From a virus (Duplodnaviria > Caudoviricetes), in the IMG/VR virus record IMGVR_UViG_3300027891_000004, positions 32,001 to 96,000 of that record: a stretch of 64,000 nucleotides of DNA, one strand, 5' to 3'. The notes below the pieces were generated by a model. The model ran no database searches. It saw only the letters and a list, made by a program, of their open reading frames with translations, and had not been told where the DNA came from. This document shows positions 5,427 to 55,479 of the stretch, piece by piece. The position numbers and the translations under genes are program-made. How positions within the stretch are numbered: the first letter of the stretch is position 1; every line of letters starts with the position of its first letter.

Positions 5427-5427
5427 T

Positions 5428-5664: not shown

Positions 5665-5666
5665 CG

Positions 5667-39644: not shown

Positions 39645-39683
39645 TTGCTAAGGGCTATCGGGGCGACGGTTCCAAATATGGCT
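39645..39683 (-). repeat. 39-bp copy of the 3' end of the Lar-like gene (40531-40569)
   Basis: 38/39 identical; encodes SHIWNRRPD(S/N)P-stop. Confidence 0.9.
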
Positions 39684-39692
39684 GCCATCCTC

Positions 39693-40058
39693 TTAATCTT
39701 TTCCTAAACTGTCATTATCATCCTGGATAATATCGGTTTTAATGTTGTGGATTGCCGTTCTGCCTTCCGGAGCGCATCGAGAACTGAACGCCTGTACAAT
39801 TTCTAAGCGAATGTAGCGGTATGGGCACATCTGTTCCGCTTCAAGTTCCGGCGGCATCAAAACATTTTCAACGTTGAATGCGGCTATGCGGTCGTTGTGT
39901 TTCACAAAATTGCGTATCGTTACCTGCAATTCGTCGATAACCAATTTGTCGCCCCGGACAAACATTTCAACAAACTCATCTATTGACCGGACATCCCAAA
40001 TCGTACAACCGGGTAGCGTCCAACCTCTGGGCGGCCTTATTGTTATTTTAATTTTCAT
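39693..40058 (-). CDS. leaderless partner of 40055..40474
   Basis: ATGA overlap with the leader gene. Confidence 0.65.
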   Translation of the reverse strand: MKIKITIRPPRGWTLPGCTIWDVRSIDEFVEMFVRGDKLVIDELQVTIRNFVKHNDRIAAFNVENVLMPPELEAEQMCPYRYIRLEIVQAFSSRCAPEGRTAIHNIKTDIIQDDNDSLGKD

Positions 40059-40474
40059 TGTGATCCGCCATATTTTTCTTTAAAATAATCATCGTATTGG
40101 ACAATATCTGATATTGTATAAACGCCCAATTCCATTAGCTCTTTTTTTCTATCTGCGTAATCATCTTTCCGTTTATCAATCATCGACATCATCGCCTTAT
40201 TAAGGTGCTGTTGAATTCTATCGCCGTCAGTTGGCATCCTTAAACGCCGCGATTCTTCGATAACTTCCTCTTCTAGCCCTAGAATAATATCTTTTTGTTT
40301 TTCCGCATCCCATTCGTTCCACGGTTGTGGTTTGCCTATAAACTCAGCATTATCAACCGTTGCGCCTTCGGTCGTGTTTTCCTCTTGAAACGCTGACATA
40401 TTGCCGCTACCACCGGCTTTGCCCGTTTCAAGCAATTCATTGAAACTACTCGCTACTCTCATTTTATGTTTCAT
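40055..40474 (-). CDS. type-B leader plus unknown helical cargo
   Basis: MRVASSFNELLETGKAGGSGNMSAFQ...TVDN. Confidence 0.8.
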   Translation of the reverse strand: MKHKMRVASSFNELLETGKAGGSGNMSAFQEENTTEGATVDNAEFIGKPQPWNEWDAEKQKDIILGLEEEVIEESRRLRMPTDGDRIQQHLNKAMMSMIDKRKDDYADRKKELMELGVYTISDIVQYDDYFKEKYGGSQ

Positions 40475-40533
40475 TCAAAAAAGTAACAAACGCAAACATC
40501 CGTAGTATGCCTGTTCCTATTATTTATCTGTTG

Positions 40534-40851
40534 CTAAGGGTTATCGGGGCGACGGTTCCAAATATGGCTCACGTACTGCAACACGTTTTTAATCGAAACT
40601 TCATTATCTGCAGCACAATCGTGGTATGTCCGTAACAAACAAGGAAAACAAGCAACGTGGAAGTAATGGGGGTCTGCGTTAGACGGCGTATAGCTGTAAA
40701 CAACATACACATCTGTTTTTCCGCATTTAGGACATGGCAGCAATTCGCTCTCTGTCTGTCGGATTAAACGCTTTAATTCATAAGCATCCTCCAAATCGTC
40801 CAAAGAGTATCGCAATTTTTCAGGAATATTTTGTTTTATTGTCGTTTTCAT
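40534..40851 (-). CDS. Lar-family (restriction alleviation-like) Zn-finger protein
   Basis: LLPCPKCG...V.C..C...WNRR. Confidence 0.8.
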   Translation of the reverse strand: MKTTIKQNIPEKLRYSLDDLEDAYELKRLIRQTESELLPCPKCGKTDVYVVYSYTPSNADPHYFHVACFPCLLRTYHDCAADNEVSIKNVLQYVSHIWNRRPDNP

Positions 40852-40869
40852 GTTTTTCTAACAACAGTG

Positions 40870-41199
40870 CTATTCAAACCAGCCGTGCCCGTATTTCCAT
40901 TTGCCAAAACCATGCGTATTCTTAAATTGATCCGCCTGTTCTCTTGTAATTGACCGATAGCCTTCAAGAAAAAACGGATTGCCTTCAGAACCCGGTTCTG
41001 TTACAACAATGTCATACCCATCTCTATCCTGCGCAATATACAGCGAAATATCATAAAAAGATACGGGAGATAAATCCTCAACGGGCTTTTCTCCGGTCGG
41101 CATATTCTCCACTGAAACAGATTGAAACGCTGACATATTGCAGCTGCCACCGGCATTGCCCGTTTCAAGCAATTCATTGAAACTACCCACTACTCGCAT
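40870..41199 (-). CDS. type-B leader plus cargo X
   Basis: MRVVGSFNELLETGNAGGSCNMSAFQSVSVEN-MPT...; cargo similar to those of 50525 and 47795. Confidence 0.8.
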   Translation of the reverse strand: MRVVGSFNELLETGNAGGSCNMSAFQSVSVENMPTGEKPVEDLSPVSFYDISLYIAQDRDGYDIVVTEPGSEGNPFFLEGYRSITREQADQFKNTHGFGKWKYGHGWFE

Positions 41200-41255
41200 A
41201 ATATGTCCCTTTCAAAAAGAGTAACAAACGCAAACGTCTACGGTATGCCGGATTT

Positions 41256-42365
41256 TCATTCATTTCCCGCCTTGAAATTATACAACGGTTTTATTATTTT
41301 GACAACTTCCATCGTATCGCGGCTGTTCTCGATAATCTCGTTCATCGGCTTGTACGCCTGCGGTGCCTCGTCAATAGTCGCCCGGTTCACGGTGGACGAA
41401 CAGATTCCTTTCATCGATTTCTCGTATTCGATTAGCGTGATCTTTTCCTTCGCCTCTTTGCGGCTCATTACACGCCCGGCACCGTGCGGAGCCGAAAAGT
41501 TCCAATTGGCGTTCCCCTTCCCTACGCAAAGGAGGCTACCGTCCCGCATATTCATAGGCACCAATATACAGTCGCCGCTTCGGGCCGATACCGCACCTTT
41601 TCGTAAGATCATCGCATCCAAATCAATGTAATTGTGTACGACGGAAAACGTATCGACGATCTTGAACTTCGCCTGTTTTGATATGTCGCGGGCAATGGCC
41701 CGTCGGTTTAAGTCGGCGTATTGTTGGACGATGCCCATATCATGTAAATAATCGGACATCGGGGAGCCTTCCAAGTAGGCCAGTGCCCTATCGTCGCCTT
41801 CCTTTGTCCGACCCAACGTGTCGGCGGCCACGTTCTGATAATAGTCGCAAACCTGTTTGCCCAGATTGCGACTTCCGGAATGGACAATCAAATAGAGCTG
41901 TCCGTCATCGTCTTGCCCCAATTCAATAAAATGGTTCCCTCCGCCGAGCGTGCCCATTGAATGGGACGCACGGTGTAAATCGACGTGTTTTACGCATTTC
42001 AATTCAAATAAATCAATATCCTCGTTGAAATGATGCGGATCGTGTCGGGTGTTAAAACCAGCGGGTATGTTTTTTATAATCGCCTTGTCGAGTTGGTTTG
42101 GATCGACCCGTTTCTCCTTTATCAACGCGACGAACATCCCGCAACAACCGTCCGTCCCCACTAAATTGGGGACAATCTTATCCGTAATCGTCATGGTCAT
42201 TCCGACCGTACCGACCTGCCCGCTGTGGACATCGGGCATTACGCGGATTTGGCTTCCTTCGACAAATGGCTGGTTCAGGATATGCCGAATCTGCGCAATT
42301 GCGCCGGGTTCGGTGGTATCCGTGAATATCTTTGCCGTATTGTATGTTCCTTGTAATTCAATCAT
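41256..42365 (-). CDS. rtcB: RtcB-family RNA ligase
   Basis: MPDVHSG, GTLGGGNHFIE, HSGSR, HNY, RKGA, SAPHGAGR, DEAPQAYK. Confidence 0.97.
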   Translation of the reverse strand: MIELQGTYNTAKIFTDTTEPGAIAQIRHILNQPFVEGSQIRVMPDVHSGQVGTVGMTMTITDKIVPNLVGTDGCCGMFVALIKEKRVDPNQLDKAIIKNIPAGFNTRHDPHHFNEDIDLFELKCVKHVDLHRASHSMGTLGGGNHFIELGQDDDGQLYLIVHSGSRNLGKQVCDYYQNVAADTLGRTKEGDDRALAYLEGSPMSDYLHDMGIVQQYADLNRRAIARDISKQAKFKIVDTFSVVHNYIDLDAMILRKGAVSARSGDCILVPMNMRDGSLLCVGKGNANWNFSAPHGAGRVMSRKEAKEKITLIEYEKSMKGICSSTVNRATIDEAPQAYKPMNEIIENSRDTMEVVKIIKPLYNFKAGNE

Positions 42366-42552
42366 TGTTTTTCATTCTGTGCTTGTCGCCTTTCGGTTTT
42401 GGGACGCTCTTGTTCGGTTCCGTTTTGTTCGTTTATCCTCATGCGTGCCTGCACCGCCACATCGTGGCGAATGTCCGGTCCGCTTTTTGACCTTTATAAT
42501 GAGTATGCAAGTTTTCTTCTTCTTCTTTTTCATTTTTATTTTTTTTTCAAAA

Positions 42553-42625
42553 TAGGCGATGCAGGGATCGAACCTGCGACCTACGGATTATGAGTCCGCA
42601 GCTCTAACCGCTGAGCTAATCGCCT
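42553..42625 (-). tRNA. tRNA with CAU anticodon (elongator Met or Ile2), no encoded CCA
   Basis: AGGCGAT/ATCGCCT acceptor stem, GCTC..GAGC D stem, GCGGA-CTCATAA-TCCGT anticodon arm, GCAGG-TTCGATC-CCTGC T arm. Confidence 0.95.
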
Positions 42626-42748
42626 TTTTCCAGTTGCTTCTTTGCTTGTTGTCGTTCGCGTTTCTTCTGCGGACGGTAAACAGACTGTCTCGTTTCTTTT
42701 GACCAACGCTTTTTCCAGTACGATTTAGTAGCGTCATTTCCGTATGGC

Positions 42749-43126
42749 CTAATTTTTGTTCGTAATCTCATTCTTCGCTATCTCGAATTTTTTGAAGTCT
42801 TGCGCGTCAAACAACAATTCCAAGTCCCACCAATAAAATTCAAAAACATACCCGCATTCAAACCGTGATGTTTGCGCCTTATAGTATTCCACATTTTGAA
42901 TGTTTTGTTGATTGGCGTTTTGAAAAAACGGGCAGTAAGAACGCGGTATCCGGTAAGTTGCAAATGATGTACTTATAACAAAATCAGTATCCGTTACTGA
43001 ATGTACTTTTATCAAGGCATTTCGACGGTTGTTTTTCCCTCTGATTTTTTTTCTCGACGGGAAAAGCCTGTCGGGGGCGTTTTTAATCCGCTTCTTTATG
43101 CGCGTTATCTTTCGTCGATTGTTCAT
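42749..43126 (-). CDS. DUF2442-like antitoxin
   Basis: YRIPRSYCPFFQNANQQNIQNVE...FYWWDLE fits the DUF2442 pattern P...P.L.NA...NVE...W..LD. Confidence 0.65.
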   Translation of the reverse strand: MNNRRKITRIKKRIKNAPDRLFPSRKKIRGKNNRRNALIKVHSVTDTDFVISTSFATYRIPRSYCPFFQNANQQNIQNVEYYKAQTSRFECGYVFEFYWWDLELLFDAQDFKKFEIAKNEITNKN

Positions 43127-43131
43127 TTTTA

Positions 43132-43263
43132 CTAAACTAAAGGAAGGGAATGATCTGGGTTGTTTTCGTTCCAATTTTCAATGTATTTATTCGGGTTATT
43201 CGCCATGTCCATTTGAACCGCCTTAATGATGTCTTTATCCACTCTTGTGGGTTCCATCAACAT
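43132..43263 (-). pseudogene. C-terminal fragment of a DUF4160-like toxin (43 codons)
   Basis: VDKDIIKAVQMDMANNPNKYIENWNE aligns with IPAPIVSDIKKHIKKNRNGFVKDWQD of 46949..47386; ends 5 nt before the DUF2442-like start. Confidence 0.55.
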
Positions 43264-43404
43264 GCGGCTACTTAAAAGCAATCGAGTTAATCATCTTTTA
43301 CGTGCCTGGGATTCGCGGTCCGCCAACGGTCAGCCGCCTTTTCGTACTTTTTAACAAATTTTCGTCAAAACGCAACCGATCAAAACTGCCCGACGCAACA
43401 AAAC

Positions 43405-43420
43405 CCCGCCACGTGGCGGG
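43405..43420 (-). terminator. CCCGCCACGTGGCGGG palindrome terminator
   Basis: 4 nt after the stop of 43425..43895; followed by GTTTTG on the minus strand. Confidence 0.8.
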
Positions 43421-43424
43421 ATCG

Positions 43425-43895
43425 TTACGCCCAATAGGTCAAACTTGTTCCAGGTATCCGTCGCAGGTCCCAATTTTTCGTCGGCCGATCAAACAAATCT
43501 TCGACCTTGTTACATTGCGGGCAGGAATCGTCTTCGCAGGGCCAGCAATGCCCGCAAATCTCACAATGGTTATGCAGACATTCCGGGCATGTCAGCCATT
43601 CGTCTTCCGGTTCAAAAGCATATCTACAATTTTTGCACATCATTTTAACGTCGATACACTCGGACGTATGCGGCTTTGGTTTTTCGGCAACTATTACAAT
43701 CATGTCGATTCTCCTTTTATTATTTTGATTTCTTTTCGTATATTCATTGTTTGAAACAATCGGCACAGAGCAGGTAAGGGGGTCGGGGCAACTACAAAGA
43801 CCGGGCAGGGCTTCGCACCAGGCGCACCGGTAAGTATCATCGCATCGAACATATCTAGGCATCTGCGTCTCCTTTCTGGTTTTGTATTTATGCAA
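43425..43895 (-). CDS. Cys-rich zinc-ribbon protein
   Basis: Multiple CxxC pairs. Confidence 0.65.
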   Translation of the reverse strand: MHKYKTRKETQMPRYVRCDDTYRCAWCEALPGLCSCPDPLTCSVPIVSNNEYTKRNQNNKRRIDMIVIVAEKPKPHTSECIDVKMMCKNCRYAFEPEDEWLTCPECLHNHCEICGHCWPCEDDSCPQCNKVEDLFDRPTKNWDLRRIPGTSLTYWA

Positions 43896-44103
43896 ACAAT
43901 TTCACGCGGGGAACGCAAACAACGCGGCCTTCCGGGCCTGGGACGATCCTCAATTTATCCTTCGATACCCACCCAAATCCGCGTATGTAAATATGAAGGG
44001 TCGTCATATCGTCGATAACGCTAAACGTATCAAACGGTATGTGATTCTTTGTTTTTTCGGTTATGAGTATCTCTTTCCCGATTTCAAACGTTTCTCTTTT
44101 CAT
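43888..44103 (-). CDS. hypothetical protein (start MKRETF)
   Basis: AGGAG RBS upstream of the internal ATG of track ORF 43888..44304. Confidence 0.5.
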   Translation of the reverse strand: MKRETFEIGKEILITEKTKNHIPFDTFSVIDDMTTLHIYIRGFGWVSKDKLRIVPGPEGRVVCVPRVKLFA

Positions 44104-44143
44104 TTCTATTTCTCCTATTTGAAAATGTGCGGTGTAACAACGT

Positions 44144-44374
44144 TCAGTTAAAAACAATAACATCCCATTCCGACGTATTGTATTTATTGGCCTTCTTTTC
44201 AAGCCGGATAACGCCGTCTTCAACAAGTTGCGAAATATGCGTTTTGAACTGGCGCCGCGTCCAACCGAAGTAAGCCATACCCAAGAGGTAAACGTCGTAT
44301 TCAAACAGGGCGAATCCGCCGTTTGAAAGATGTTCGCAAGCCTTTACGAACTGCGTCAAAAGTGTGTTTTGCAT
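44144..44374 (-). CDS. hypothetical protein, possible winged helix
   Basis: AGGAG RBS; F...ISQLVEDGVIRL. Confidence 0.55.
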   Translation of the reverse strand: MQNTLLTQFVKACEHLSNGGFALFEYDVYLLGMAYFGWTRRQFKTHISQLVEDGVIRLEKKANKYNTSEWDVIVFN

Positions 44375-44494
44375 CGTCCCGATCTCCTATTGAAAAAGGT
44401 CTTGAACTTGCGGGGATCGTTCCCCGCACCTGTTTTTCAATAGATTCGTAGAGCAAGTTTTCAGGCAACTATGCAAAACATTACAAAGAAGTTT

Positions 44495-44734
44495 TTAATC
44501 AATAAGCAACTTTATCTTATCAGCAACTTCCTTTCCGTAATGTTCGGCCAACAGCGAATACATTGAATGCCCGGCTTCCTCATAGTTACCGTGTTGTTCA
44601 TGTAGCCATTTATCGAACTTGTACGGGTCTAAAAACGGTCTGCCCGTCAGCCACGAGAGCATACCGTCAAGGAAATTGCATATTTGCATATCGAACGTAT
44701 CCCTAAAAAATTTGATCGCTTCCTGGTGAGACAT
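44495..44734 (-). CDS. hypothetical phage protein
   Basis: 79-aa ORF downstream of the promoter motif at 44792. Confidence 0.65.
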   Translation of the reverse strand: MSHQEAIKFFRDTFDMQICNFLDGMLSWLTGRPFLDPYKFDKWLHEQHGNYEEAGHSMYSLLAEHYGKEVADKIKLLID

Positions 44735-44814
44735 ACGCCAATTCCCGTTCTAAAAAAAATACAAGTTAAATCAAAAAAAAACTTCCAACTAAGTATGCCG
44801 GATTATAACGCGAA

Positions 44815-45576
44815 TCAATTTGTTTTTTCTTTTTCGGCGTTCTTTTCGGCAAGCCACGCGAAGTATTCATCGGGGCTACTGAACTGTATTTGGCCTGCCT
44901 TCGGGGTGGGGAGCGGGGCCGAGTTTGCGTCTTTCCTGGTCTTGTTCGCCAGCTTATTCAATTCTTCAAGATGCGCTATTTCTTCGGGCAACAAGCGTAG
45001 CATCCAATGTATTTGATAACTCGTCAAATCAAGAATTTGGTCAACCGTCCAACCGTACTTTTCGGCCAACCCTTTGAAGATACGGGCCACGTTTTCGTCA
45101 GGAGTCGATTCGACACGCGGACTATCACTCTCAGGCTGCGGCGGATCGGGCGGGAGCGGGCAAAAAGTAGCTTGTTGCATCTCCGCGAGGAGCAACCGCG
45201 AGGTTTCGGAGATGCCGTTCGGAAAAAACAGCTTTTTTAGCTTTGCATCGGCCCACGCTGGTGCGTCGCGGATAAGCAACTTAATAAAACGAACCAAATA
45301 ATCAATATGAGAATATAAAAACTCATGGCCGATACCTACTTGGAAATCAAAGTCTTCGATTTTATTCAACGCAAGATCAACAAACTCGGCACGTTCGCTT
45401 TCGGGCACCAACTTAATCTGATCGTCAAACTGTTTGGCATACTTGTATTTAAGCCACGTATTGAAATCAATAAGATCGCGTTGTCGCAAAGGGTATACCC
45501 ATAGCGTATGCCGGTCCAATTCGTAGGGGACCGGCGATTGCGACATAGCCGATTTGTGCGTGTACGGTAAGATCAT
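44815..45576 (-). CDS. tail assembly chaperone, gpGT-like
   Basis: N-terminal half paralogous to 38983..39633; C-terminal LAEKYGWTVDQILDLTSYQI resembles gpT/gpE' segments. Confidence 0.7.
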   Translation of the reverse strand: MILPYTHKSAMSQSPVPYELDRHTLWVYPLRQRDLIDFNTWLKYKYAKQFDDQIKLVPESERAEFVDLALNKIEDFDFQVGIGHEFLYSHIDYLVRFIKLLIRDAPAWADAKLKKLFFPNGISETSRLLLAEMQQATFCPLPPDPPQPESDSPRVESTPDENVARIFKGLAEKYGWTVDQILDLTSYQIHWMLRLLPEEIAHLEELNKLANKTRKDANSAPLPTPKAGQIQFSSPDEYFAWLAEKNAEKEKTN

Positions 45577-45639
45577 GTGAATTGAAAACGATTCATTTAC
45601 CGTATGTATGCCAGAACGCGCCAGAAATTCAAGAACAAA

Positions 45640-46089
45640 TTAGCATCTTCGCCGGGGGAAACGCGCCGGGACCGCCTGCAGGGTAGGGACAAACGATTGT
45701 CGGCCCTGCAATGCCAATTCCGTATCCGCCATGCGCTGGGCAAGGCAGTTATTCGGATCGAGCAGCATCGCCTGCTGCCCGTGCAAAGAACCTCGAAGGA
45801 ACGCATCGGTAGTCATAGCATACGCCTCGCTGGCCGCGCCGACCGATTTTGAGGTAACAACGCCGGTAGATACCTGGAACTGGTGCGCCGCTAGATAAAG
45901 CGTAATCGCCTCGATCTGCTCAGGCGTATAATTTGCCATACACCCGTTCAAAATACTTGTCTGGACCATAAGCGACGCGGTTTTGATAGCCATATCCAAC
46001 GTCGCGTCGGCGGTCGGCGGTATGTTCGGGTACACCTCCCGTACTTTTCCGTGCGTTGTGTAGGGCGGGGTCATGTCTTTCGGTGCCAT
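45640..46089 (-). CDS. head-tail adaptor (DUF4054 / SPP1 gp15-like)
   Basis: YLAAH...VTSKSVGAASEAY...HGQQAMLLDP. Confidence 0.85.
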   Translation of the reverse strand: MAPKDMTPPYTTHGKVREVYPNIPPTADATLDMAIKTASLMVQTSILNGCMANYTPEQIEAITLYLAAHQFQVSTGVVTSKSVGAASEAYAMTTDAFLRGSLHGQQAMLLDPNNCLAQRMADTELALQGRQSFVPTLQAVPARFPRRRC

Positions 46090-46119
46090 TGCTGCTATAT
46101 TGTATGATTGGTTATTGTC

Positions 46120-46482
46120 CTATTTTTTCCGTTTCAATGCCTCGCGCACTTGGCTATCCTGTTCGTCGGCGATTTCGTAGGCAACGGTATCGTTCGCGTT
46201 GTGCGCATCCCGCAGCTGAATCCTAAAAAAATTGACGAGTTTATTCAAATCATCAACGCTATAGGCGGCGTACTCTTTGATGTTTTGTTCTCTTTCGCTT
46301 ACCAATTTCTTCAGGTCCTCGGAACCGACGGCACCCTGAAAACTAAGCGTCCAGTCCAATTTTCCTTTTGGTTCCCGCATCGAGGGTAGCGGACCAACCG
46401 GGACGGGCATCGCCGCGTTAAATGAGGCATTAGCGCATTGTTGCAAATGCTCAAACTGTGATATGTCTGCCAATTTTTTCAT
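46120..46482 (-). CDS. type-A leader plus unknown helical cargo
   Basis: MKKLADISQFEHLQQCANASFN. Confidence 0.8.
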   Translation of the reverse strand: MKKLADISQFEHLQQCANASFNAAMPVPVGPLPSMREPKGKLDWTLSFQGAVGSEDLKKLVSEREQNIKEYAAYSVDDLNKLVNFFRIQLRDAHNANDTVAYEIADEQDSQVREALKRKK

Positions 46483-46512
46483 TGTGATTCCACTAAAAAT
46501 TACGCACGTCCG

Positions 46513-46947
46513 TCATATAACAAATGAATCTTGGCTGTCGTTCCAATGCCGCCTATCAATATAATTTACGGATAATTCCAAACCTGCGATAGTACAAACA
46601 AAGTGGTGTCCGCAATGATCCGTATGCGTATCCCAATGATAACCAAGCGATATTAAATCATCAACCAGGGCCATTTCAAATTCCAACAATTTGTGTTTTG
46701 GTCGTCGCCATAGTTTAGAAAGTAGCACAAAACCTGGATTTCCACGTCGTCCCAACGCGGCATAGTATAGCCCTTTAGTTAGCCAACATATAGGATTTAA
46801 TTTGTTCAAAACATACGGCAATTTGAAATTGAATTCTAAACCGTAGTCTAAAACCACAAATCGAAAAAACAAACCTAAAAACGCCAACTTAATTGCGACG
46901 TTAATCACGCTATGCCTACTGTACCACCATTCTTTTAAACTGTCCAT
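46513..46947 (-). CDS. leaderless partner (putative antitoxin) of the DUF4160 cargo
   Basis: ATG 1 nt after the toxin stop (TAG-A-ATG). Confidence 0.65.
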   Translation of the reverse strand: MDSLKEWWYSRHSVINVAIKLAFLGLFFRFVVLDYGLEFNFKLPYVLNKLNPICWLTKGLYYAALGRRGNPGFVLLSKLWRRPKHKLLEFEMALVDDLISLGYHWDTHTDHCGHHFVCTIAGLELSVNYIDRRHWNDSQDSFVI

Positions 46948-46948
46948 T

Positions 46949-47386
46949 CTAATCCTCTCGTAACAGCTGTTGCCTTGCCTGCTCATCTTGCCAATCTTTT
47001 ACAAAACCATTTCTGTTCTTTTTAATGTGTTTTTTGATGTCGCTTACAATAGGGGCAGGTATGCCATTATTTTCGGCCAACTCGACAACGGCCTGACCAT
47101 TGTATTCAAGCCAAAATTTTGCTTTTCCTTCCGGCGTATAGACGTGAACGTGCATAGGTTCTGTTCTGCCGCCATGCTGTTCTTCGTCAACGTAAACAGA
47201 AAATGAAAAACCACGAAATGGCGGCGTATTCTTTGATTTGGGCGACATATTGCCGACAACGGCACTTTGAAATGCACCTGACAACTTGGAAACTGCCGCA
47301 CCATCATTAAACATGGACATTTCGCTTCGAGGCATATCCCAGTTCCCCAACGATTCAAACATTGATATATCAGCCAACCTTTCCAT
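46949..47386 (-). CDS. type-A leader fused to a DUF4160 (HicA-like/DhiT) toxin domain
   Basis: GFSFSVY..E.H...EPMHVHV....GKAKFWL...W; leader MERLADISMFESLG...MSMFN...AFQ...VVGN. Confidence 0.85.
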   Translation of the reverse strand: MERLADISMFESLGNWDMPRSEMSMFNDGAAVSKLSGAFQSAVVGNMSPKSKNTPPFRGFSFSVYVDEEQHGGRTEPMHVHVYTPEGKAKFWLEYNGQAVVELAENNGIPAPIVSDIKKHIKKNRNGFVKDWQDEQARQQLLRED

Positions 47387-47418
47387 TATTCTATCTTTCT
47401 TCGTGATTCGGCGAGTTG

Positions 47419-47802
47419 TTACTCTTGGAGATACCTACGATTCCATGATTCGCATATACGTCTTAGAGATTCTTTGAAATCTTCTTCATCGTCTTCCGCA
47501 TACCATGTTACTGTTTGCATACCGCATTCTGGATTGCTGCAACTAGCGTATAATCCATGAGGATTTATTGTAAATTCCACGCCGTAAGTGCCATCTTCTT
47601 TTTTCACGCTTCGTCCACCATTTTTTCCGGGATAAAAGGCGTATTCAATACGAGGCTTTTCCTGCCCACAATTTGCGCACGGTAACAATGAAACCTCAAA
47701 CGGTTCTATTAACGCTAGAATTTCGGCTTCATTTTCCAACATGCAGGCATAAAAACAAGCGGCAGAACCGGGCTTGAATTCTGGGGTCAATTTACTATTC
47801 AC
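47419..47802 (-). CDS. Lar-family Zn-finger protein
   Basis: LLPCANCG...C...CG...WNRR; paralog of 50108 and 40534. Confidence 0.8.
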   Translation of the reverse strand: MNSKLTPEFKPGSAACFYACMLENEAEILALIEPFEVSLLPCANCGQEKPRIEYAFYPGKNGGRSVKKEDGTYGVEFTINPHGLYASCSNPECGMQTVTWYAEDDEEDFKESLRRICESWNRRYLQE

Positions 47803-48199
47803 AGCTCACCTCTTCATTTTCAAATTTTACCAAACCTTCTATACTGTCGCCCCAAGTAGAACCGGAACGAACGCGGTTTATGTATTGTAACGCCTCTGCC
47901 CGGTCCGTAAAAGGCGATCCTTGTACAACAAATGAATCTTCCATCGGGTTATCTGGGTTTGTCGCAATTATATCCAAACCTTTGCCTTCCGGATTTTTTC
48001 GTAACGAAAATTTATACTGTTTTCCGGTCATCTTGCTTTTAGGCTTACTAAAATTTGGCGACATACTATCTACGATGGCATCTTGAAAAATCTCCGACAG
48101 GCGAGCAACCGCACCACTATTAAACATGGACATTTCGCTTCGAGGCATATCCTCGCTCCCCAACGATTCAAACATTGATATATCTGCCAACTTTTCCAT
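47795..48199 (-). CDS. type-A leader plus cargo X
   Basis: MEKLADISMFESLGSEDMPRSEMSMFN...IFQ; YKFSL...GLDIIATNPD. Confidence 0.8.
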   Translation of the reverse strand: MEKLADISMFESLGSEDMPRSEMSMFNSGAVARLSEIFQDAIVDSMSPNFSKPKSKMTGKQYKFSLRKNPEGKGLDIIATNPDNPMEDSFVVQGSPFTDRAEALQYINRVRSGSTWGDSIEGLVKFENEEVSCE

Positions 48200-48237
48200 A
48201 GCAGTATGCAAAAAAAGAAAAAATACTGATCAAAATT

Positions 48238-48768
48238 TTATTTCAATCCGGCCCGCACATTGTTGTCCATATCTTCAATATCGTTTTTGAATGTTTCGTA
48301 TGCCGCATCGAGGTCTTTGTCGCCGTTCTGCAATTGATCGAAAATTCTGTATTGTTTATCCGCCTCTTGCGACAACTTGGTATGCGAGTGCAAAAACGTA
48401 CCCAACGAATCCAACATCCCCTGCTCGCCCTGGGCTACTTTTGCCAGTGTCTGTATCTCTTTTTTCGGTATACTGGGAAACTGTTTGACGACTGATTTAA
48501 GCGTCCGTTTACCCCCGTTCAATTCACGCAGGGCCGAATAGACCTTTTTGAATTCGGGTCCCGTCACGCCCCGGCTCTCAAACTGTCCCATAAACGCCTC
48601 TTTTTGCGCCCGGAAATCATCGCCCGCCTGTGCCGCCTCGTAATGGAACGGCTTTACTTTTTCAACGAACCCGTCCGATAATTGCGAGTTGAAACACGAC
48701 ATGGGCGACATCATGCGTTGATTCGCGTGTGCCTGCAACGATTCAAATTGTGAAATATCTGCCTGCAT
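48238..48768 (-). CDS. type-A leader plus unknown helical cargo
   Basis: MQADISQFESLQAHANQRMMSPMSCFN. Confidence 0.8.
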   Translation of the reverse strand: MQADISQFESLQAHANQRMMSPMSCFNSQLSDGFVEKVKPFHYEAAQAGDDFRAQKEAFMGQFESRGVTGPEFKKVYSALRELNGGKRTLKSVVKQFPSIPKKEIQTLAKVAQGEQGMLDSLGTFLHSHTKLSQEADKQYRIFDQLQNGDKDLDAAYETFKNDIEDMDNNVRAGLK

Positions 48769-48772
48769 TGTC

Positions 48773-49291
48773 TTACTTTTGTTGTGCGTAGTATTGCATC
48801 GCTTCCTCTTTGGTAGCGAATTTTGGCATTTCTTTTTTCGGTTGCGCCGTCCCGCCGGGCAATTCTACGGGTTTGAAAGCGTCGCCGCCCAACAGGTACG
48901 TATTGCCCAAAAACGACTTGGCTATCGCCGCCTGTTTTTTCATCAAGCGGTCATGCGCTTTCGGATCGTCTTTAACCTGTTCGCCTTCCTGTCGTATCTC
49001 GCGGCTAACTTCGCCGACCCCGGCTTTCATAGTATCGACCGCGTTATCGATTTCCGGGCGGATCGATTTGTATGTTTGCTGCGCCTGCCGCACTTCCTGC
49101 TCGTTTCGGGAATGCCAAATATCCTGCTGCGTTTCGTAGACTCCGCGCAAACCGCCTTTCAATATCTCATAGGCGCGGTCCATCGATTGGAGCGTCTGGT
49201 CCAATTCGGGCGAATTGAAGCATGACATAGCAGATACCCCGCCACGTGGCGGGGTATCCAATAATTCGTTAAATGAATTTACAACTCGCAT
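48773..49291 (-). CDS. type-B leader plus unknown helical cargo
   Basis: MRVVNSFNELLDTPPRGGVSAMSCFN; ATG 2 nt after the upstream stop. Confidence 0.8.
   Translation of the reverse strand: MRVVNSFNELLDTPPRGGVSAMSCFNSPELDQTLQSMDRAYEILKGGLRGVYETQQDIWHSRNEQEVRQAQQTYKSIRPEIDNAVDTMKAGVGEVSREIRQEGEQVKDDPKAHDRLMKKQAAIAKSFLGNTYLLGGDAFKPVELPGGTAQPKKEMPKFATKEEAMQYYAQQK
49233..49258. repeat. 26-bp palindrome inside leader coding sequence
   Basis: GATACCCCGCCACGTGGCGGGGTATC. Confidence 0.9.
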
Positions 49292-49293
49292 GG

Positions 49294-49641
49294 TTATCTT
49301 TGGGCTATTGCCTGTTCTATCCGATCCAAACGAGTATTTGTATCGCTTTGCAACCGGAGTAGTTTTGCATCTACGTTTGCAAAACCGTTCTTTGTGGTGA
49401 TTTCCAAATTGTCCATTCGGCTTTCTAATTTTCCAAACCGTTCGTCTATTTTTCCAAATCGCTCGTCCACCTGCTTCCTCCACTCAACCAATGGAAGATT
49501 ACTCTGTATAGGCGTAGCTGAACTTATGGGACTTATGCCACTCGGCGCATTTTGCACAGGATTAAACGCCCCCAAACCGGAAACAGGGGCACCCACGGCT
49601 CCCAACGATTCAAACATACCAATATCAGCGAGCTTTTCCAT
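49294..49641 (-). CDS. type-A leader plus coiled-coil cargo
   Basis: MEKLADIGMFESLG...LGAFNPVQN; paralog of 51261. Confidence 0.8.
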   Translation of the reverse strand: MEKLADIGMFESLGAVGAPVSGLGAFNPVQNAPSGISPISSATPIQSNLPLVEWRKQVDERFGKIDERFGKLESRMDNLEITTKNGFANVDAKLLRLQSDTNTRLDRIEQAIAQR

Positions 49642-49646
49642 GTTTA

Positions 49647-50069
49647 TCACTTTCGTAAAAGTTGTTCCCGGTACGCTTGGTAGCTTTCGGGCGTTAGGTT
49701 CAGGTAACGGAGCATTTCCTGCGAAGGCGTCTCCGTTTTTCTAATCGCATCCTGTACTTGCAACATCCCCTTTTCGCGTGAGGCTCGTTCGGCGCCCCAA
49801 TCGTCATACGGATCATCCTGCCGGTCCCCGGCGGCGTCGCCCGTAGCGAAATCGGGGTAGACCCGCTTGATCGTTTTGGCTACATCGCGTGGGTGCATCC
49901 GACCCCCGTCGTCCAAATAAGAGAGCATATCGGGCAGGGTAGTGCCCTGGAACGCGGCGTTTACGCTCACGGCGCGCAGGCTACGGTCATCAAACGTAAA
50001 CATAGCGGGTATGCCAAATGCCGCGTTCTGTTGCGTCTGTAGCTGCGAAAATAGTGGGATACTGTCCAT
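49647..50069 (-). CDS. type-C leader plus unknown cargo
   Basis: First 41 aa identical to 50525..50887 (MDSIPLFSQLQ...VNAAFQ). Confidence 0.8.
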   Translation of the reverse strand: MDSIPLFSQLQTQQNAAFGIPAMFTFDDRSLRAVSVNAAFQGTTLPDMLSYLDDGGRMHPRDVAKTIKRVYPDFATGDAAGDRQDDPYDDWGAERASREKGMLQVQDAIRKTETPSQEMLRYLNLTPESYQAYREQLLRK

Positions 50070-50107
50070 TTCAATTTATAGGCGTTGACGTTACTACAAC
50101 AGTATGA

Positions 50108-50506
50108 CTACTTACCTGTCCTTTTATTCCATGCGCTGCAGACGCGCCTTAACGCTTCTACAAAATCGTCTTCGGTATCTTCGGCATTCCACACTCTTGT
50201 TTGGATTCGGCAATCTTCAATATCTGAGGGCGGATCAGTAGCAGCATTTCGGCAACACACAACATACAACTCATGCGGGCATTCCTTCATGGGGATTTCG
50301 CCGTTTGGTTGCAGCTGAGTTGGGAACATATTACCGGGGCGGTACATGTAATGTACATGCGGACGATCATTTCCGCAATGCGCACAGGGCAGCAAGGTGG
50401 CATCAGCCTCGTTAATGAGGGTAGCTATTTCGGACTCGTTTTCAAGCTCGTACAAAAAACAACGAGTACGGCCATCACAATTGCCTGTTTTTAGTTTTGT
50501 ATTCAT
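50108..50506 (-). CDS. Lar-family Zn-finger protein
   Basis: LLPCAHCG...PH.LY..C...C...WNKR; GAGG RBS. Confidence 0.8.
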   Translation of the reverse strand: MNTKLKTGNCDGRTRCFLYELENESEIATLINEADATLLPCAHCGNDRPHVHYMYRPGNMFPTQLQPNGEIPMKECPHELYVVCCRNAATDPPSDIEDCRIQTRVWNAEDTEDDFVEALRRVCSAWNKRTGK

Positions 50507-50524
50507 TATTGCACCTCATAAAAG

Positions 50525-50887
50525 CTAAAATAAGTACCCCCACTTATCAAACTTATGCGTATTTTTGAACGCGATTGCTTCTTGAGCCGTTATATTATCC
50601 ATATCTTCGATATACGCTGTTTGTTTGCCGCCATCGGGGTCTGAAACGGCAATCCCACACCTGTCCGTTCCTTGAACAGGGTGTAGCGAAAAAACGTAAT
50701 GTCTGTCTGGACGCAATTCTGATAAAGAGATTAAGCCGCTCGGAAAGTTTTCTACGGAAACGTCTTGGAACGCGGCGTTTACGCTCACGGCGCGCAGGCT
50801 ACGGTCATCAAACGTAAACATAGCGGGTATGCCAAATGCCGCGTTCTGCTGCGTCTGCAACTGCGAAAAAAGAGGGATAGAATCCAT
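50525..50887 (-). CDS. type-C leader plus cargo X
   Basis: Leader followed by SVEN-FPSG...YVFSL...FKNTHKFDKW. Confidence 0.8.
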   Translation of the reverse strand: MDSIPLFSQLQTQQNAAFGIPAMFTFDDRSLRAVSVNAAFQDVSVENFPSGLISLSELRPDRHYVFSLHPVQGTDRCGIAVSDPDGGKQTAYIEDMDNITAQEAIAFKNTHKFDKWGYLF

Positions 50888-50898
50888 ACTGATTTCCT

Positions 50899-51258
50899 TT
50901 ACAATCGTCTCAAAATGCCCTTGCGAACTGCGTCGTTTATTTTACTCTTTACTTCACGTTCCAATTGGGCCATACTGATTTCATCGTCTGGCCGACGCGC
51001 CTTCACGCCTTCCAATTTGAACCGCATCTTTTCGCCCACCCGGTTCATCACAAGTGTGCCGATAGTGCGTCGTAGATTCTCCTGTGTCGCGAGCGGTATT
51101 TTACGATTCTGTCGTTCTCTGGGGTCTCGCCGGTCCGTAACGCCCTTCTTGCGAAGTTCGGCAAGCACTTCATTTTTTACAAACTGCTCTACTTTATTCG
51201 TTACTCGTTGTCGGACCGCCTTGTGTATAGCGGCTTCTATCGTCTTTTGTAGACTCAT
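50899..51258 (-). CDS. basic hypothetical protein (leaderless)
   Basis: Arg/Lys-rich, starts 2 nt after the upstream stop. Confidence 0.65.
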   Translation of the reverse strand: MSLQKTIEAAIHKAVRQRVTNKVEQFVKNEVLAELRKKGVTDRRDPRERQNRKIPLATQENLRRTIGTLVMNRVGEKMRFKLEGVKARRPDDEISMAQLEREVKSKINDAVRKGILRRL

Positions 51259-51260
51259 AG

Positions 51261-51605
51261 CTATCTTTGCATAAGAGCTTGTTTGATACTTGCCACATCC
51301 TGCTCCAAACGATCAAATCGCGTATTTGTGTCGTTATGCAACCGTTCTATTTTTGCGTCTACGTTTGCGAAACCGTTCTTTGTAGCAATTTCCAAATTAT
51401 CAATTCGGGCTTCAAGGCCATCGACCCGCTTGCTCAAATTCTGGCCCCATTGTGGCATAGGAAGGTTACCCTGGACGGACGCGGGGGAACCGACGGGGTT
51501 CACGCCCGGCGCGTTCTCAATCGTATTGAACGCGCCCAAATTCGACAATCCGACGTTTCCGGTTCCAAGCGATTCAAACATCCCAATATCTGCGAGTTTT
51601 TCCAT
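51261..51605 (-). CDS. type-A leader plus coiled-coil cargo
   Basis: MEKLADIGMFESLG...LGAFNTIEN; paralog of 49294. Confidence 0.8.
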   Translation of the reverse strand: MEKLADIGMFESLGTGNVGLSNLGAFNTIENAPGVNPVGSPASVQGNLPMPQWGQNLSKRVDGLEARIDNLEIATKNGFANVDAKIERLHNDTNTRFDRLEQDVASIKQALMQR

Positions 51606-51634
51606 AATTATCACTTCCGTAAAAGTTGTATTTG

Positions 51635-52027
51635 CTATTGTGGCAATTCGTCGGGCGAGCCGCTACCAAAACTAGGCGAGCCGATAAGGGCTGGCGGGCC
51701 GCCTGAGGGGACGCTCGGCGTGTCTGAGGACTGGTCATTCCCCATACCGCCTTTTTGCAGGTCGGCCACGGCGGTCCGCGTACCACGCATACCAGCATCC
51801 AATCTATTATTCAACTCGTCAAGAACCCCCTCAAGTTTCGCTTGTTCGGCCTCGGCCTCGGCGTCCGCCCGGAGCCTGCGAAGCGAATCAATTTGCGTCA
51901 TCCAACTTTCGACGCTTGTTTTAATATCCTCAACAGTCGCGTTAAACACGGACATGGGCGACATCATGCGCCGGTTCGCGCTCGATTGGAGATTCTCAAA
52001 CATTGAAATATCGGCAAGTTTTTCCAT
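51635..52027 (-). CDS. type-A leader plus helical cargo
   Basis: MEKLADISMFENLQSSANRRMMSPMSVFN. Confidence 0.8.
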   Translation of the reverse strand: MEKLADISMFENLQSSANRRMMSPMSVFNATVEDIKTSVESWMTQIDSLRRLRADAEAEAEQAKLEGVLDELNNRLDAGMRGTRTAVADLQKGGMGNDQSSDTPSVPSGGPPALIGSPSFGSGSPDELPQ

Positions 52028-52039
52028 AGTAAATCCTCA

Positions 52040-52258
52040 TTAAATATCAATGATTTCGTTGACCGCCTCCGCGGCGGTCTTCAAATTAAACTGCGCATTC
52101 GCAATATCGACGGCGGACGGCGGATGACGACGTGCTTCAAGCTGCAACAAATACAACTCATGTCGCAAATCGTCCCGCTTCTTCTCCAAACGCCACAGGG
52201 CAGCTTCAACTTCTTTGAGCCCCTGCTCCACGGCGTATATTCGATCTGAAATAGACAT
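52040..52258 (-). CDS. small coiled-coil protein (leaderless)
   Basis: ATG (MSISDR) 7 nt after the upstream stop. Confidence 0.55.
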   Translation of the reverse strand: MSISDRIYAVEQGLKEVEAALWRLEKKRDDLRHELYLLQLEARRHPPSAVDIANAQFNLKTAAEAVNEIIDI

Positions 52259-52265
52259 TATCGGT

Positions 52266-53060
52266 TCAATAGTCGCTGGCCGCCTCGAACCTGGCCTTTT
52301 CTTTTTCAAACTTAGCTTGATATTCTGCTAACTCTTGCCTCGCTTTTTCAATATATTCGGATTCAGAAACAGGGTCTTTTGAATAGGGAAACCGCCGCTC
52401 CAACTGCGCTAATTTCATCTCAGCCTGTTCAAACCGATCTTGGGCATCAAACATCCAACGTCGTAATGCTGGCGTGTTTTGGGAATCTTCCCATTTCTTT
52501 ATCTCGTCAAATTTTGGGATTGTGCGCTTTATATCGTCAAGCTGCTCTTTAATGACAGATGGGCGTTCGTCATAGTCACGTTCGTTTCCTTTTTCATCGT
52601 ATTTATCGGGGTTTCCCGTGGCAATCCTTTTCGCCCGCTCCAATTTGTCGCTTTCGCTTTCTGTTATTTGCCGCTGCGGTCGATCATCCTCTATCGGCAA
52701 CTTTTTTTGGACCGGCTGTTGGTCAATTTCGGCCAACAATTGCTGAGCTTTCGCCTGCGTGTCTTTGCCGACACGACGGCGGGTAGTTGCGACAGCATCA
52801 AAAAACTGACGAGCGACTTCTCTATCTCGTTCGTCCCAGCTACCAATTACGTCCGCCAACGTATCCGGCAACTCCAATTGGTTTTGGTCCAACGGACCAC
52901 TTTCATCTCTTAGCTCGTTTAATTTTTCTTGATAATATGCGGCACGGGCGCCGTTAAACGTATGTTTGTAGTTAAACACGCTCATCTGCGACATGCCCAT
53001 CGCGTTGTGTGCGCCGGATTGAAGGTTCTCAAACACAGAAAGGTCTGCTAGTTTTTGCAT
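52266..53060 (-). CDS. type-A leader plus charged helical cargo
   Basis: MQKLADLSVFENLQSGAHNAMGMSQMSVFN. Confidence 0.8.
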   Translation of the reverse strand: MQKLADLSVFENLQSGAHNAMGMSQMSVFNYKHTFNGARAAYYQEKLNELRDESGPLDQNQLELPDTLADVIGSWDERDREVARQFFDAVATTRRRVGKDTQAKAQQLLAEIDQQPVQKKLPIEDDRPQRQITESESDKLERAKRIATGNPDKYDEKGNERDYDERPSVIKEQLDDIKRTIPKFDEIKKWEDSQNTPALRRWMFDAQDRFEQAEMKLAQLERRFPYSKDPVSESEYIEKARQELAEYQAKFEKEKARFEAASDY

Positions 53061-53183: not shown

Positions 53184-54878
53184 TTAAGCCGCCATTTTGA
53201 ATTCATCGCCATCTTCTTCCAAACGCGACGCTTCGTCGGCGACGATAAGTTTCTTCAATTCCGGCGACATGTCCAACAAAAACGGGTACCGGGACGCCAG
53301 CGAATGGAGCTGCGCAAGGTAGACACGTTTCATATCGTCCGACGATTCGCCCAGGTACATCGCCATAGCGTTCCGCGTCTCGGCGAATACCTCGTTCATC
53401 GCCTTCGTAAACGCGGTATCTACGCTTTTTCCGCTTATCGCGTCCGCCCCGTCATCGGTAGTTGACTGGGCGATCCGCGTAGCATCGGGCAACGAATCGG
53501 CTTTGGAATCCCCGTACTTTTTAATATGGGACAACACGGCGGCCTGCGCCGCCTTCAATTCCACGTCAAGGTTTTCCAACTCACGCAAGTCGGCGGGATC
53601 GAGCGGTTTCTTAGCCTTGAGCAATTTTGCGTTCTTTTCCTCCAACTCCGCGATCCGTGTCCGAATGTCTACTGCAATAGCACGCAACCGCTTGCGCTCC
53701 GCATTCTTTTTTTCAACCTCTTCACTATCGAACGAACCCTTCGGTCGCCCGGTCGAGGCCGACTCCCACAACCCGTCCTCAGTCTGCCGGAACTTAAACC
53801 CGCCACGCGCGTCGTTCAGAAGGTTCAGAATCAACGCCTCATTGAATGAGGTAACGAGTACCTGTGCCGCGTTTCTTAATTTCTTAACCGTACTTACGAA
53901 CAGGTCTTCACCCTCTTCCAAATCGTCGGAGGCCACGATTTCGGGGTTATCCTGCATCTCCTCACGAGCGGGCACCTCCTCAAGAACAATTTCGGGCGTG
54001 TCCGGCATAGCTTCGGACAAACTTGCCACTTTCGCGGGACCTGTCGGCGGCTCAATTGTGATTTTGTAACCCTCGGCTGTTGTAAACGATTGCACGCCGG
54101 GCATGACCGGGCCCGCGCCCATTGATTCCAAAGGCGGCGCGACGGCTACTTTTATTTCTGTATGCGCCGTGCCGTGCGCATTCGCGTTTTTCGCATCGGT
54201 GTGTCCCTGTTCTTCTCTAAAAAGTCGTGTAGATTCCATAACCGGCGACCCCGCAAGATAATCATTGTTGATGTACGTAGTAATGATATTCAACGTTTCT
54301 CCCGCTTTCATTTCTTTTCGTTCGTTAATGAGCAACCCGGCCCCATCCGATAGGCTACAAGCGCCCTGTTTACGGGGCAGGATAGCGAGATGGTCGGCCC
54401 GGATGTTGATGATACGCCCGATATACGGTTCGCTATTCCATACGCCCTCATCCATGATGAGTTCGGAGAACAGACCGGTCGATATTTCCATCGGGAGCCG
54501 GTGTTTGATATGCTCAAGCAGGGTAGGGCACTTCTCCTCGGCCTTGCGTCTATCGATCCACGCTTCGGCCTTGAGCTTACCGTCCACAAAATGCGTATTC
54601 ATAATCATCCCGACCGCCTGCCGCTTGTAGACTTCGAGATCGGTCGCCGTATCGCCCCGGAACGGATGTTCGATTACGACGGGCTTGAAATTCCACATTT
54701 TGGGCGTTTTTGCCAACTCTTCGGTATCGTAATAAACGGGCCCCTGCGAGCCGGTATGGACCCCTTCGAGGATCATCGTCATCGGGGCGACGACGTATTC
54801 ACGGTCGTCAAGCGTTTCGTACCGAACCGTCGGGTCGATAGTTACGTTCCAAATGGTTTCTATTTTGTTGCGTGGCAT
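53184..54878 (-). CDS. DUF2213-type prohead maturation protease with long C-terminal region
   Basis: EGVH.G..G...Y..EEL...WN.KPVVIEHP, EISTG, DHLAILP...GACS..DG.GL. Confidence 0.9.
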   Translation of the reverse strand: MPRNKIETIWNVTIDPTVRYETLDDREYVVAPMTMILEGVHTGSQGPVYYDTEELAKTPKMWNFKPVVIEHPFRGDTATDLEVYKRQAVGMIMNTHFVDGKLKAEAWIDRRKAEEKCPTLLEHIKHRLPMEISTGLFSELIMDEGVWNSEPYIGRIINIRADHLAILPRKQGACSLSDGAGLLINERKEMKAGETLNIITTYINNDYLAGSPVMESTRLFREEQGHTDAKNANAHGTAHTEIKVAVAPPLESMGAGPVMPGVQSFTTAEGYKITIEPPTGPAKVASLSEAMPDTPEIVLEEVPAREEMQDNPEIVASDDLEEGEDLFVSTVKKLRNAAQVLVTSFNEALILNLLNDARGGFKFRQTEDGLWESASTGRPKGSFDSEEVEKKNAERKRLRAIAVDIRTRIAELEEKNAKLLKAKKPLDPADLRELENLDVELKAAQAAVLSHIKKYGDSKADSLPDATRIAQSTTDDGADAISGKSVDTAFTKAMNEVFAETRNAMAMYLGESSDDMKRVYLAQLHSLASRYPFLLDMSPELKKLIVADEASRLEEDGDEFKMAA

Positions 54879-54881: not shown

Positions 54882-55232
54882 CTATTCAGTTTCTTGTTCG
54901 GGCACGCCGGGCGGGTAAAGCACATTGGTTTTAGCGATAAAATACGCGCGGACAAACGGGATAGCATCCAAAGTATGTATCGCAAACGACGAGCATATAC
55001 TTACCAACCCGCCGTATAGAAACAACGAGACAAGGCAGGGCCACCCGAAAGATGCCGTCGTTAGGCAAAAGTACAAAACGCCGACCCAGAACCCGACGCA
55101 CATCGGACATTGCGCCCCGTACCGCAAACCATCGGTCGGGAGCGAATCCCGCAGCGACTGAAGTATCGCCGAACGGGTAAGTATATTAACCAAACCGACA
55201 AGCGATATAAGTTCAAGTATTGCTATGTTCAT
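54882..55232 (-). CDS. DUF1360-like membrane protein
   Basis: ILTRS.I...LR...CPMCVGFWVG with TM segments. Confidence 0.7.
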   Translation of the reverse strand: MNIAILELISLVGLVNILTRSAILQSLRDSLPTDGLRYGAQCPMCVGFWVGVLYFCLTTASFGWPCLVSLFLYGGLVSICSSFAIHTLDAIPFVRAYFIAKTNVLYPPGVPEQETE

Positions 55233-55326
55233 TTTCGTTATAAAAGAAGGGGCGACGGCAGAACCGCCGCCCCAACCACCTTTTTCCCAAACCTTCTCTT
55301 GCGCGGGCAAGAACTCCCGCACCCGT

Positions 55327-55479
55327 AGTATACCAAATTTTCAGCTACCGTGTAAAAAACGCGCACTAGAGAATTTTTTTAGCACATTTACCAAAAATAT
55401 GCCAAAATACACAAGAACAACCATCGAAGTTTACCAAAAATGCGCCGCTTTTACACGGAACGAATTTTTATGATATAAT
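55327..55479. promoter_or_regulatory. divergent sigma70-like promoter pair
   Basis: Minus: TTTACA-N18-TATACT (55356-55327); plus: TTTACA-N18-TATAAT with extended TG (55450-55479). Confidence 0.7.

Follow-up and report, generated by a model that had tools for sequence, protein, structure and literature searches.

In T-even phages, the internal proteins (Ip1-3 and relatives) carry an N-terminal leader, the capsid-targeting sequence (CTS), by which they are routed into the procapsid (PMC12373910, PMC3012670). The loci that encode them are polymorphic among related phages, for which a shuffling mechanism has been proposed (Repoila 1994, as cited in PMC4122927). Short conserved repeats, the promoter-early stem-loops (PeSLs), flank variable genes of T4-like phages and permit their exchange without a dedicated recombinase (Arbiol 2010; PMC4122927), and in giant phages (SPN3US and phiKZ-like phages) an essential prohead protease cuts many proteins of the head interior (PMC5694885, PMC10052503). 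Here we analyse a 64,000-nt stretch (the window; bases 32001-96000) of the 167,820-bp virus record IMGVR_UViG_3300027891_000004, which is estimated to be 94% complete and in which a series of small genes begins with a common leader sequence, each followed by a different remainder, the cargo. Coordinates are in window numbering unless marked 'genome', which refers to the full 168-kb record. The explanation that accounts best for the data, and that we consider probable, is that the leaders form one family, that they target proteins to the procapsid and that homologous exchange confined to leader DNA has taken place between neighbouring genes.

One leader family on many cargos

The leader is N-terminal, 25-46 aa long and bipartite, with motif 1 (phi-x-x-F-[ENS]-x-L) followed by motif 2 (M-S-x-F-[NQ]); its consensus reads M-x-KLADIS-x-FE-x-L...MSVFN, and a second F-Q is present in some variants. 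An earlier note on this DNA had separated three leader types, A, B and C. Alignment and a hidden Markov model (HMM) across 25-29 genes merge them into a single family, in which the letters denote variants, and given the common two-motif architecture it is reasonable to infer that these variants may be functionally interchangeable. The HMM detects at least 29 leader-tagged genes genome-wide, on both strands, plus frameshifted copies, and the 29 tagged genes fall into about 20 cargo clusters. When a profile built from 32 leaders was run against 1.84 billion representative proteins (threshold E <= 1e-3), it matched 221 protein clusters, nearly always at residues 1-30; in public data, 138 leader-bearing representatives make up 103 cargo clusters. 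No Pfam family covers the leader and no PHROG family matches it, a literature search on the leader motif returned nothing relevant, and a degenerate DNA pattern of the C leader had no match in viral contigs.

Three proteins of relatives (P0051, P0052 and P0055) have a tandem double leader within one gene. In P0051 the double leader precedes an entire sigma-70 factor (regions 2 and 4), an architecture that suggests a packaged transcription factor. Frameshifted or interrupted tagged genes lie at window ~5319-5897 (+) and genome 116807-117321 (+), and they indicate turnover inside the leader family. Motif 2 also occurs at the extreme C terminus of four proteins encoded outside the window, as ...MSAFQ or ...MAAFQ (genome 25900-26451, 98203-98754, 126904-127479 and 161877-162098), three of which bear an N-terminal leader as well.

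Near-identical leader DNA flanks two-gene units

Four pairs of leaders are nearly identical in DNA: pairs A, B and C in the window, and a fourth formed by two DUF4160 genes outside it (genome 5933/6772). In pair C, string comparison finds 83 nt (49948-50030 and 50766-50848) to be 100% identical, up to the third base of the Gln codon in AAFQ. The full repeat of 122 nt contains 8 mismatches, all synonymous and all in the ATG-proximal 39 nt, a mosaic for which the chance that every mismatch falls in the ATG-side part is ~1e-4. Past the junction the two C cargos match at 18/78 residues in a forced alignment and give no BLASTP match. The core of pair A (47306-47386 and 48119-48199) agrees at 76/81 nt and continues for ~66 nt at ~60% identity up to MSP codons (about 47236 and 48053), joined in one copy to DUF4160 (Pfam E 1.5e-10) and in the other to a cargo termed X. 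Pair B, which takes in ~48 nt of DNA before the ATG, is 87% identical across 128 nt. When the 168-kb genome was compared with itself by BLASTN, the repeats had E values of 5e-46 (C), 3e-30 (A) and 1e-35 (B). All three repeats described in the earlier note, together with the unrelatedness of the cargos behind them, were recovered. Throughout, the identity is box-shaped, running from the ATG (in pair B, from 48 nt upstream) to the leader/cargo junction; beyond the junctions the cargos of pairs A, B and C are 17-24% identical in forced alignments and give no match by BLASTP, and across the four pairs the forced alignments yield 17-30%.

Low synonymous divergence (pS, the proportion of differing synonymous sites, of 0.15-0.33) is found in these four pairs only. 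In more than 50 remaining leader pairs whose residues are conserved, synonymous sites have reached saturation (pS 0.5 to >1), so the peptide appears to be kept by selection, and the DNA identity is local and recent. Matches of 33-46 nt among dispersed MEKLADIGMFE leaders were considered as candidates for long-range conversion and dropped, as low-degeneracy codons account for them. Because near-identical leader DNA precedes unrelated cargos, the histories of leader and cargo disagree; conversely, homologous X and DUF4160 cargos bear different leader variants. Judged by these sequence comparisons, leader and cargo are separate evolutionary modules, and it is this separability that survives from the earlier proposal that the two are shuffled as modules.

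Cargo X occurs three times, and a leaderless Lar-like paralogue follows all three X genes. Homology between the X copies at 50525 and 40870 is clear (39% over 76 aa, E 4e-16). For the copy at 47795 the sequence evidence is marginal (hhalign probability 54%, E 1e-4), but its assignment is supported by the Lar-like partner that follows it, as with the other two. These three copies carry leader variants C, B and A, respectively. Among the partners, 50108-50506 is 38% identical to 47419-47802 (E 6e-23) and matches 40534-40851 with E 3e-7. The Pfam family Lar_restr_allev matches 40534-40851 below its cut-off (E 1.8e-5, 25.3 bits; cut-off 28.6 bits) and 47419-47802 weakly, also below cut-off. Word-based searches that took X_C or the Lar-like alignment as query returned this genome's own copies only, and an ESM Atlas look-up of cargo X gave low-confidence matches, which are uninformative. 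Leaderless partner genes follow X three times and DUF4160 three times.

Overlooked in the earlier note is the two-gene unit that every near-identical pair brackets. In all four cases the paired leaders belong to neighbouring tagged genes whose starts are 737-899 bp apart, and each pair encloses a leader-cargo gene plus a leaderless gene; X+Lar units are flanked by near-identical leaders in 3/3 cases (post hoc P about 0.01, 14 adjacent pairs). Since the three X and three Lar copies are mutually only 20-40% identical, these units are apparently old and the leaders around them young. A search for Lar remnants (tblastn with Lar_B) found a match at the B locus and none at the A or C loci. The match, a 39-nt sequence like the Lar_B 3′ end, is what is left, behind 39693-40058, of a fourth Lar-like gene.

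Origin of the leader DNA identity

The box-shaped identity, the mosaic of pair C and the stop at the homology boundary argue for leader-limited gene conversion or unequal exchange. At the four loci, homologous recombination, either as gene conversion or as unequal crossing-over, would have recently passed sequence between the two flanking leaders, with exchange tracts ending where homology ends, at the leader/cargo junction. The earlier note had supposed that no dedicated recombinase is involved, and indeed the 168-kb genome contains no match to PF00589 or PF00239, the tyrosine and serine recombinase families; a RecA-like gene outside the window (31.6 bits, above cut-off) could carry out the exchange. 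In principle, leader homology could also delete, duplicate or import entire in-frame cassettes, and it is plausible that leader DNA acts as a platform for cassette exchange. The identity pattern suits local conversion or unequal exchange of adjacent leaders at least equally well as cassette swapping. What the data support of the recombination platform proposed earlier is therefore leader exchange in four neighbouring pairs; that leader DNA also drives cargo exchange is a conjecture beyond this, as the other pairs are saturated. More tentatively, and with less confidence than we place in leader-limited exchange, the leader coding DNA might double as an in-frame recombination site, which would make the leader-cargo-partner arrays a recombinase-free cassette system. 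Any leader-leader crossover would then delete, duplicate or import effector-partner cassettes and would always regenerate a correctly tagged, packageable protein.

A competing account that we regard as possible, though clearly less probable than exchange, is that whole units (5′ untranslated region (UTR), leader, X and Lar) were tandemly duplicated and that foreign DNA later took the place of what lay inside the second copy, near-identity reflecting the recent duplication. It draws on the B locus, where both unit ends are repeated (UTR and leader at 87%, the last 39 nt of Lar at 97%) around an unrelated two-gene interior; this Lar 3′-end copy behind the second unit indicates that duplication of the whole unit and replacement of its interior did take place at the B locus at least. 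The A and C loci, however, are without a Lar remnant, three independent precise replacements would be needed, each ending at the leader junction, and the pair C mosaic (8 mismatches, then 83 identical nt) requires later conversion regardless.

Somewhat less probable still, X+Lar could be a mobile two-gene cassette that enters leader/cargo junctions through leader homology, for example as a re-integrating circle that had been cut out between two leaders, leaving a leader copy on each side. All three units do lie between leaders of the same variant, with the variant differing by locus, exactly the layout that Campbell-type integration predicts, and the mini-circles of T4-type PeSLs offer a precedent (PMC4122927). 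Yet the divergence of the X and Lar copies (20-40% identity) leaves no recent spread in this genome, while their flanking leaders are 87-100% identical; no relatives of X or Lar are known elsewhere, and the fourth pair flanks a different unit. Exchange confined to the leaders remains our preferred account of the identity.

A prohead protease upstream of the array and the probable role of the leader

The leader genes of this region belong to the late structural block and are read from the minus strand. In transcription order, the capsid gene is followed by a few accessory genes, the 564-aa DUF2213 gene and then 11 tagged small genes. The DUF2213 gene product was identified by Pfam (E 1.3e-7; PF09979, 32.2 bits against a cut-off of 22) and by the PHROG family of head maturation proteases. 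The model of its N-terminal 200 residues has a predicted local distance difference test (pLDDT) score of 83.5, and its top Foldseek match is T4 gp21 (probability 1.0, TM-score 0.46-0.54), followed by herpesvirus assemblins; residues H41, H71 and S133 are invariant across 34 homologues. PF09979 is named for Pa193 gp24, a putative scaffolding protein observed within the capsid (PMC11456595), and because this namesake is a putative scaffold and the N-domain is gp21-like, we read the gene as a protease-scaffold fusion. Among relatives the N-domain is 70-77% identical, and total length varies from 372 to 966 aa through a variable scaffold part (53184-54878 and 54882-55322 compared with P0003-P0048). 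F-[NQ] motifs in the scaffold parts of the homologues were considered as a cleavage motif and dropped, being scattered at unconserved positions.

The leader follows this protease lineage. Four phages whose protease N-domain is 75-76% identical have 25 leader matches in 89 kb, and two further relatives have a few weak ones; none was found in 80 loci of phages whose protease is 39-52% identical. A search for related loci by protease alone returned no relative in viral contigs. In the genes at genome 5933 and 6772 (DUF4160), the leader F-N abuts MSP, which we take to be the usual start of a DUF4160 protein, and the identical join occurs in a relative. Gene order behind a gp21/assemblin-fold protease, together with clade restriction, leads us to regard the leader as most likely a capsid-targeting propeptide cut by the prohead protease, a counterpart of the T4 CTS without sequence relation to it. 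The leader would direct small accessory proteins into the procapsid, and the protease encoded just upstream would then probably cut it off. Complex prediction for the protease N-domain with the leader gave a score of 0.02, uninformative in either direction.

We consider it unlikely that the leader works as a tag of a different sort, for example as a degron, an export signal, a leader of ribosomally synthesized and post-translationally modified peptide (RiPP) type or an uncleaved encapsulin-like loading peptide. The motif 2 copies at the C-terminal end of four proteins are more in keeping with a binding peptide than with a cleavage site. Against such tags stand the location of the genes, which come after the prohead protease gene in the late structural block, the co-occurrence of the leader with one protease lineage, cargos that are folded domains (for example, DUF4160 and a sigma factor) and an array beside which no modification or export genes were seen.

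Several points weigh against the explanation that we favour, in which propeptide leaders exchange sequence locally. X, like one of the DUF4160 genes, has an additional V-x-N-[MF]-P motif after F-Q, and, taken together with the proteins that end in ...MSAFQ, this means that motif 2 could be a binding and not a cleavage site; the cleavage position within the leader sequence is uncertain, and we infer packaging, cleavage and the structural variants alike. Tandem leaders in relatives are only 67-80% identical in DNA, so recent leader exchange may be peculiar to this genome. The enrichment around two-gene units rests on a post hoc test of 14 adjacent pairs, and movement of X/Lar cassettes is untraceable because detectable relatives are confined to this genome.

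Cassette turnover in related phages

The relatives L002 and L004 align collinearly, with 72-75% identity in DNA. An interval bounded by the same two conserved genes holds a single leader-tagged gene in L002 and five in L004; the cargos are unrelated, and the alignable DNA of this interval is 77 nt of leader only. This comparison of related genomes, which the earlier note had suggested, shows that tagged cassettes are gained and lost rapidly at hot spots, through crossovers that may lie in the leader or elsewhere.

Two further explanations of the near-identical leaders can be dealt with briefly. That nucleotide identity is maintained by selection on a DNA or RNA element is highly improbable: the first dozen codons of many leaders are indeed alike in DNA, but low-degeneracy codons explain this, the more than 50 other conserved-residue pairs are saturated, and identity is found between neighbours only. 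An origin of the repeats or of the surrounding gene order in metagenomic assembly is just as improbable, for although the record is an assembled IMG/VR virus contig and an 83-nt exact repeat is longer than common assembly k-mer sizes, the pattern recurs at four independent loci with differing identities (79-93% over whole repeats, with one 83-nt exact stretch), all in frame with genes intact, and every junction is within read length of unique sequence.

Gene neighbourhood and dispersed repeats

The features of the window are collected in Table 1. After the main array come a head-tail connector-like gene, RtcB, tRNA-Met and then two further tagged genes (41199 down to 40055); the RtcB RNA ligase gene (E 5e-66) and tRNA-Met, at window 41256-42625 (-), thus sit between both leader-gene clusters. 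Between the capsid and protease genes lie a ParB-like gene and a PAPS (3′-phosphoadenosine 5′-phosphosulfate)-reductase/DUF3440 gene (window 56462-58191, -), an unusual location.

Table 1. Positions of leader-tagged genes, their partners, head genes and direct repeats in the window.
Feature	Position	Strand	Evidence or remark
Major capsid protein, DUF6260, HK97/encapsulin-like	59873..61024	-	
Putative prohead protease-scaffold gene, 564 aa, immediately upstream of main leader array	53184..54878	-	DUF2213, PHROG head maturation protease
Main array, 11 leader-tagged genes	46120..53060	-	Leader HMM 31-57 bits
Main-array start codons	53060, 52027, 51605, 50887, 50069, 49641, 49291, 48768, 48199, 47386, 46482	-	
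Leader C + cargo X (X_C); leader DNA 50765-50887	50525..50887	-	
Leaderless Lar-like zinc-ribbon partner of X_C	50108..50506	-	Paralogue of 47419-47802 and 40534-40851
Leader C + unrelated orphan cargo; leader DNA 49947-50069	49647..50069	-	
Leader A (extended) + probable divergent cargo X_A	47795..48199	-	
Leaderless Lar-like zinc-ribbon partner of X_A	47419..47802	-	
Leader A (extended) + DUF4160 domain, then leaderless gene 46513-46986	46949..47386	-	Pfam DUF4160 E 1.5e-10
Leader B + cargo X (X_B)	40870..41199	-	
Leaderless Lar-like zinc-ribbon partner of X_B	40534..40851	-	Pfam Lar_restr_allev, sub-cut-off
Leader B + orphan cargo, then leaderless gene 39693-40058	40055..40462	-	
Direct repeat, pair C	49948..50069 with 50766-50887	.	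83 nt by junction identical
Direct repeat, pair A	47236..47386 with 48053-48199	.	Core 76/81 nt, rest ~60%
Direct repeat, pair B, leader B + ~48 nt 5′ untranslated DNA	40385..40511 with 41122-41249	.	87% identical
39-nt repeat, 97% identical to Lar_B 3′ end (40531-40569)	39645..39683	.	Self-BLASTN; tblastn with Lar_B residues 78-105

The genome has 18 copies of a perfect palindrome, CCGCCACGTGGCGG, most of them reaching 20-28 nt, and five of the copies fall in the window (5410, 30518, 43406, 49239 and 56430) against 0.03 expected. Several copies stand 70-150 nt upstream of leader genes, and two lie within leader-coding spacers, at 49239 (gene 48773-49291) and at 5410 (the frameshifted leader gene). 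The palindrome may be a terminator/promoter element of the PeSL kind. A separate 57-nt repeat, 87-97% identical between copies, occurs at window 55324-55380 and at genome 25659-25716, 97674-97730 and 101362-101416, near leader genes and on both strands; it adjoins the palindrome at two sites.

Comparison with known systems

Should the leader be a capsid-targeting propeptide, it would mark the injected-protein repertoire of an uncultured large-phage clade, at least 221 protein clusters that are mostly functionally unassigned and can be found by a simple profile search. The tagged set would then likely be rich in anti-defence and host-takeover factors, and a portable leader of ~30 aa might load foreign proteins into capsids, as has been done with the T4 CTS. 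Homologous exchange between genes that are otherwise unrelated can use a coding leader as its substrate, which makes leader exchange a concrete candidate mechanism for fast turnover of cargo genes; if the arrays do work as a cassette system, the clade's arsenal of injected proteins would evolve fast.

The T4 CTS is a peptide of ~10 aa with an L/I-x-E cleavage site. The present system resembles it in that otherwise unrelated small proteins have the N-terminal leader alone in common, that the phage encodes a gp21-fold protease and that tagged loci vary among related phages (one gene in L002 vs five in L004). It differs in its leader of 25-46 aa, which is bipartite and ends in F-[NQ], in the number of tagged genes (~29 per genome, vs 3 in T4 and ~10 reported in T4 relatives), in a protease that is a DUF2213 protease-scaffold fusion and in cargos of which several have a leaderless partner gene. 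No relation of the leader to the T4 CTS was found in a comparison of its consensus, which lacks a conserved terminal L/I-x-E, the CTS sequence itself not having been aligned. The propeptides of giant phages have, to our knowledge, only a short cleavage motif in common and no conserved, profile-recognisable module of 30 aa.

As with PeSLs, repeats flank the exchangeable units, here leader repeats around two-gene units at four loci. PeSLs, however, are non-coding promoter-terminator stem-loops, whereas the present repeats are coding from the ATG onward except in pair B, and because the repeat is coding, exchange stays in frame and regenerates a tagged protein. Mini-circles belong to the PeSL record; in the present system, as seen in assembled sequence, neither these nor deletion products have been observed. 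Polymorphic toxin systems (CdiA, Rhs), with their toxin-immunity cassettes and orphan modules, likewise have a conserved N-terminal part for delivery and, joined to it, a variable C-terminal part ahead of a small partner gene, and their downstream units keep a piece of conserved sequence that permits recombination. Here the presumed delivery part is a short leader instead of a large trafficking domain, and among the cargos only DUF4160 is toxin-like, by family annotation. From integron-like and other site-specific cassette systems the arrays are set apart by a 168-kb genome without a tyrosine or serine recombinase. Set beside these systems, the novelty lies in the leader family itself, bipartite and of this size, in how many genes it tags, in a protease lineage of DUF2213 type, in the frequent presence of leaderless partners and in a recombining repeat that is coding.

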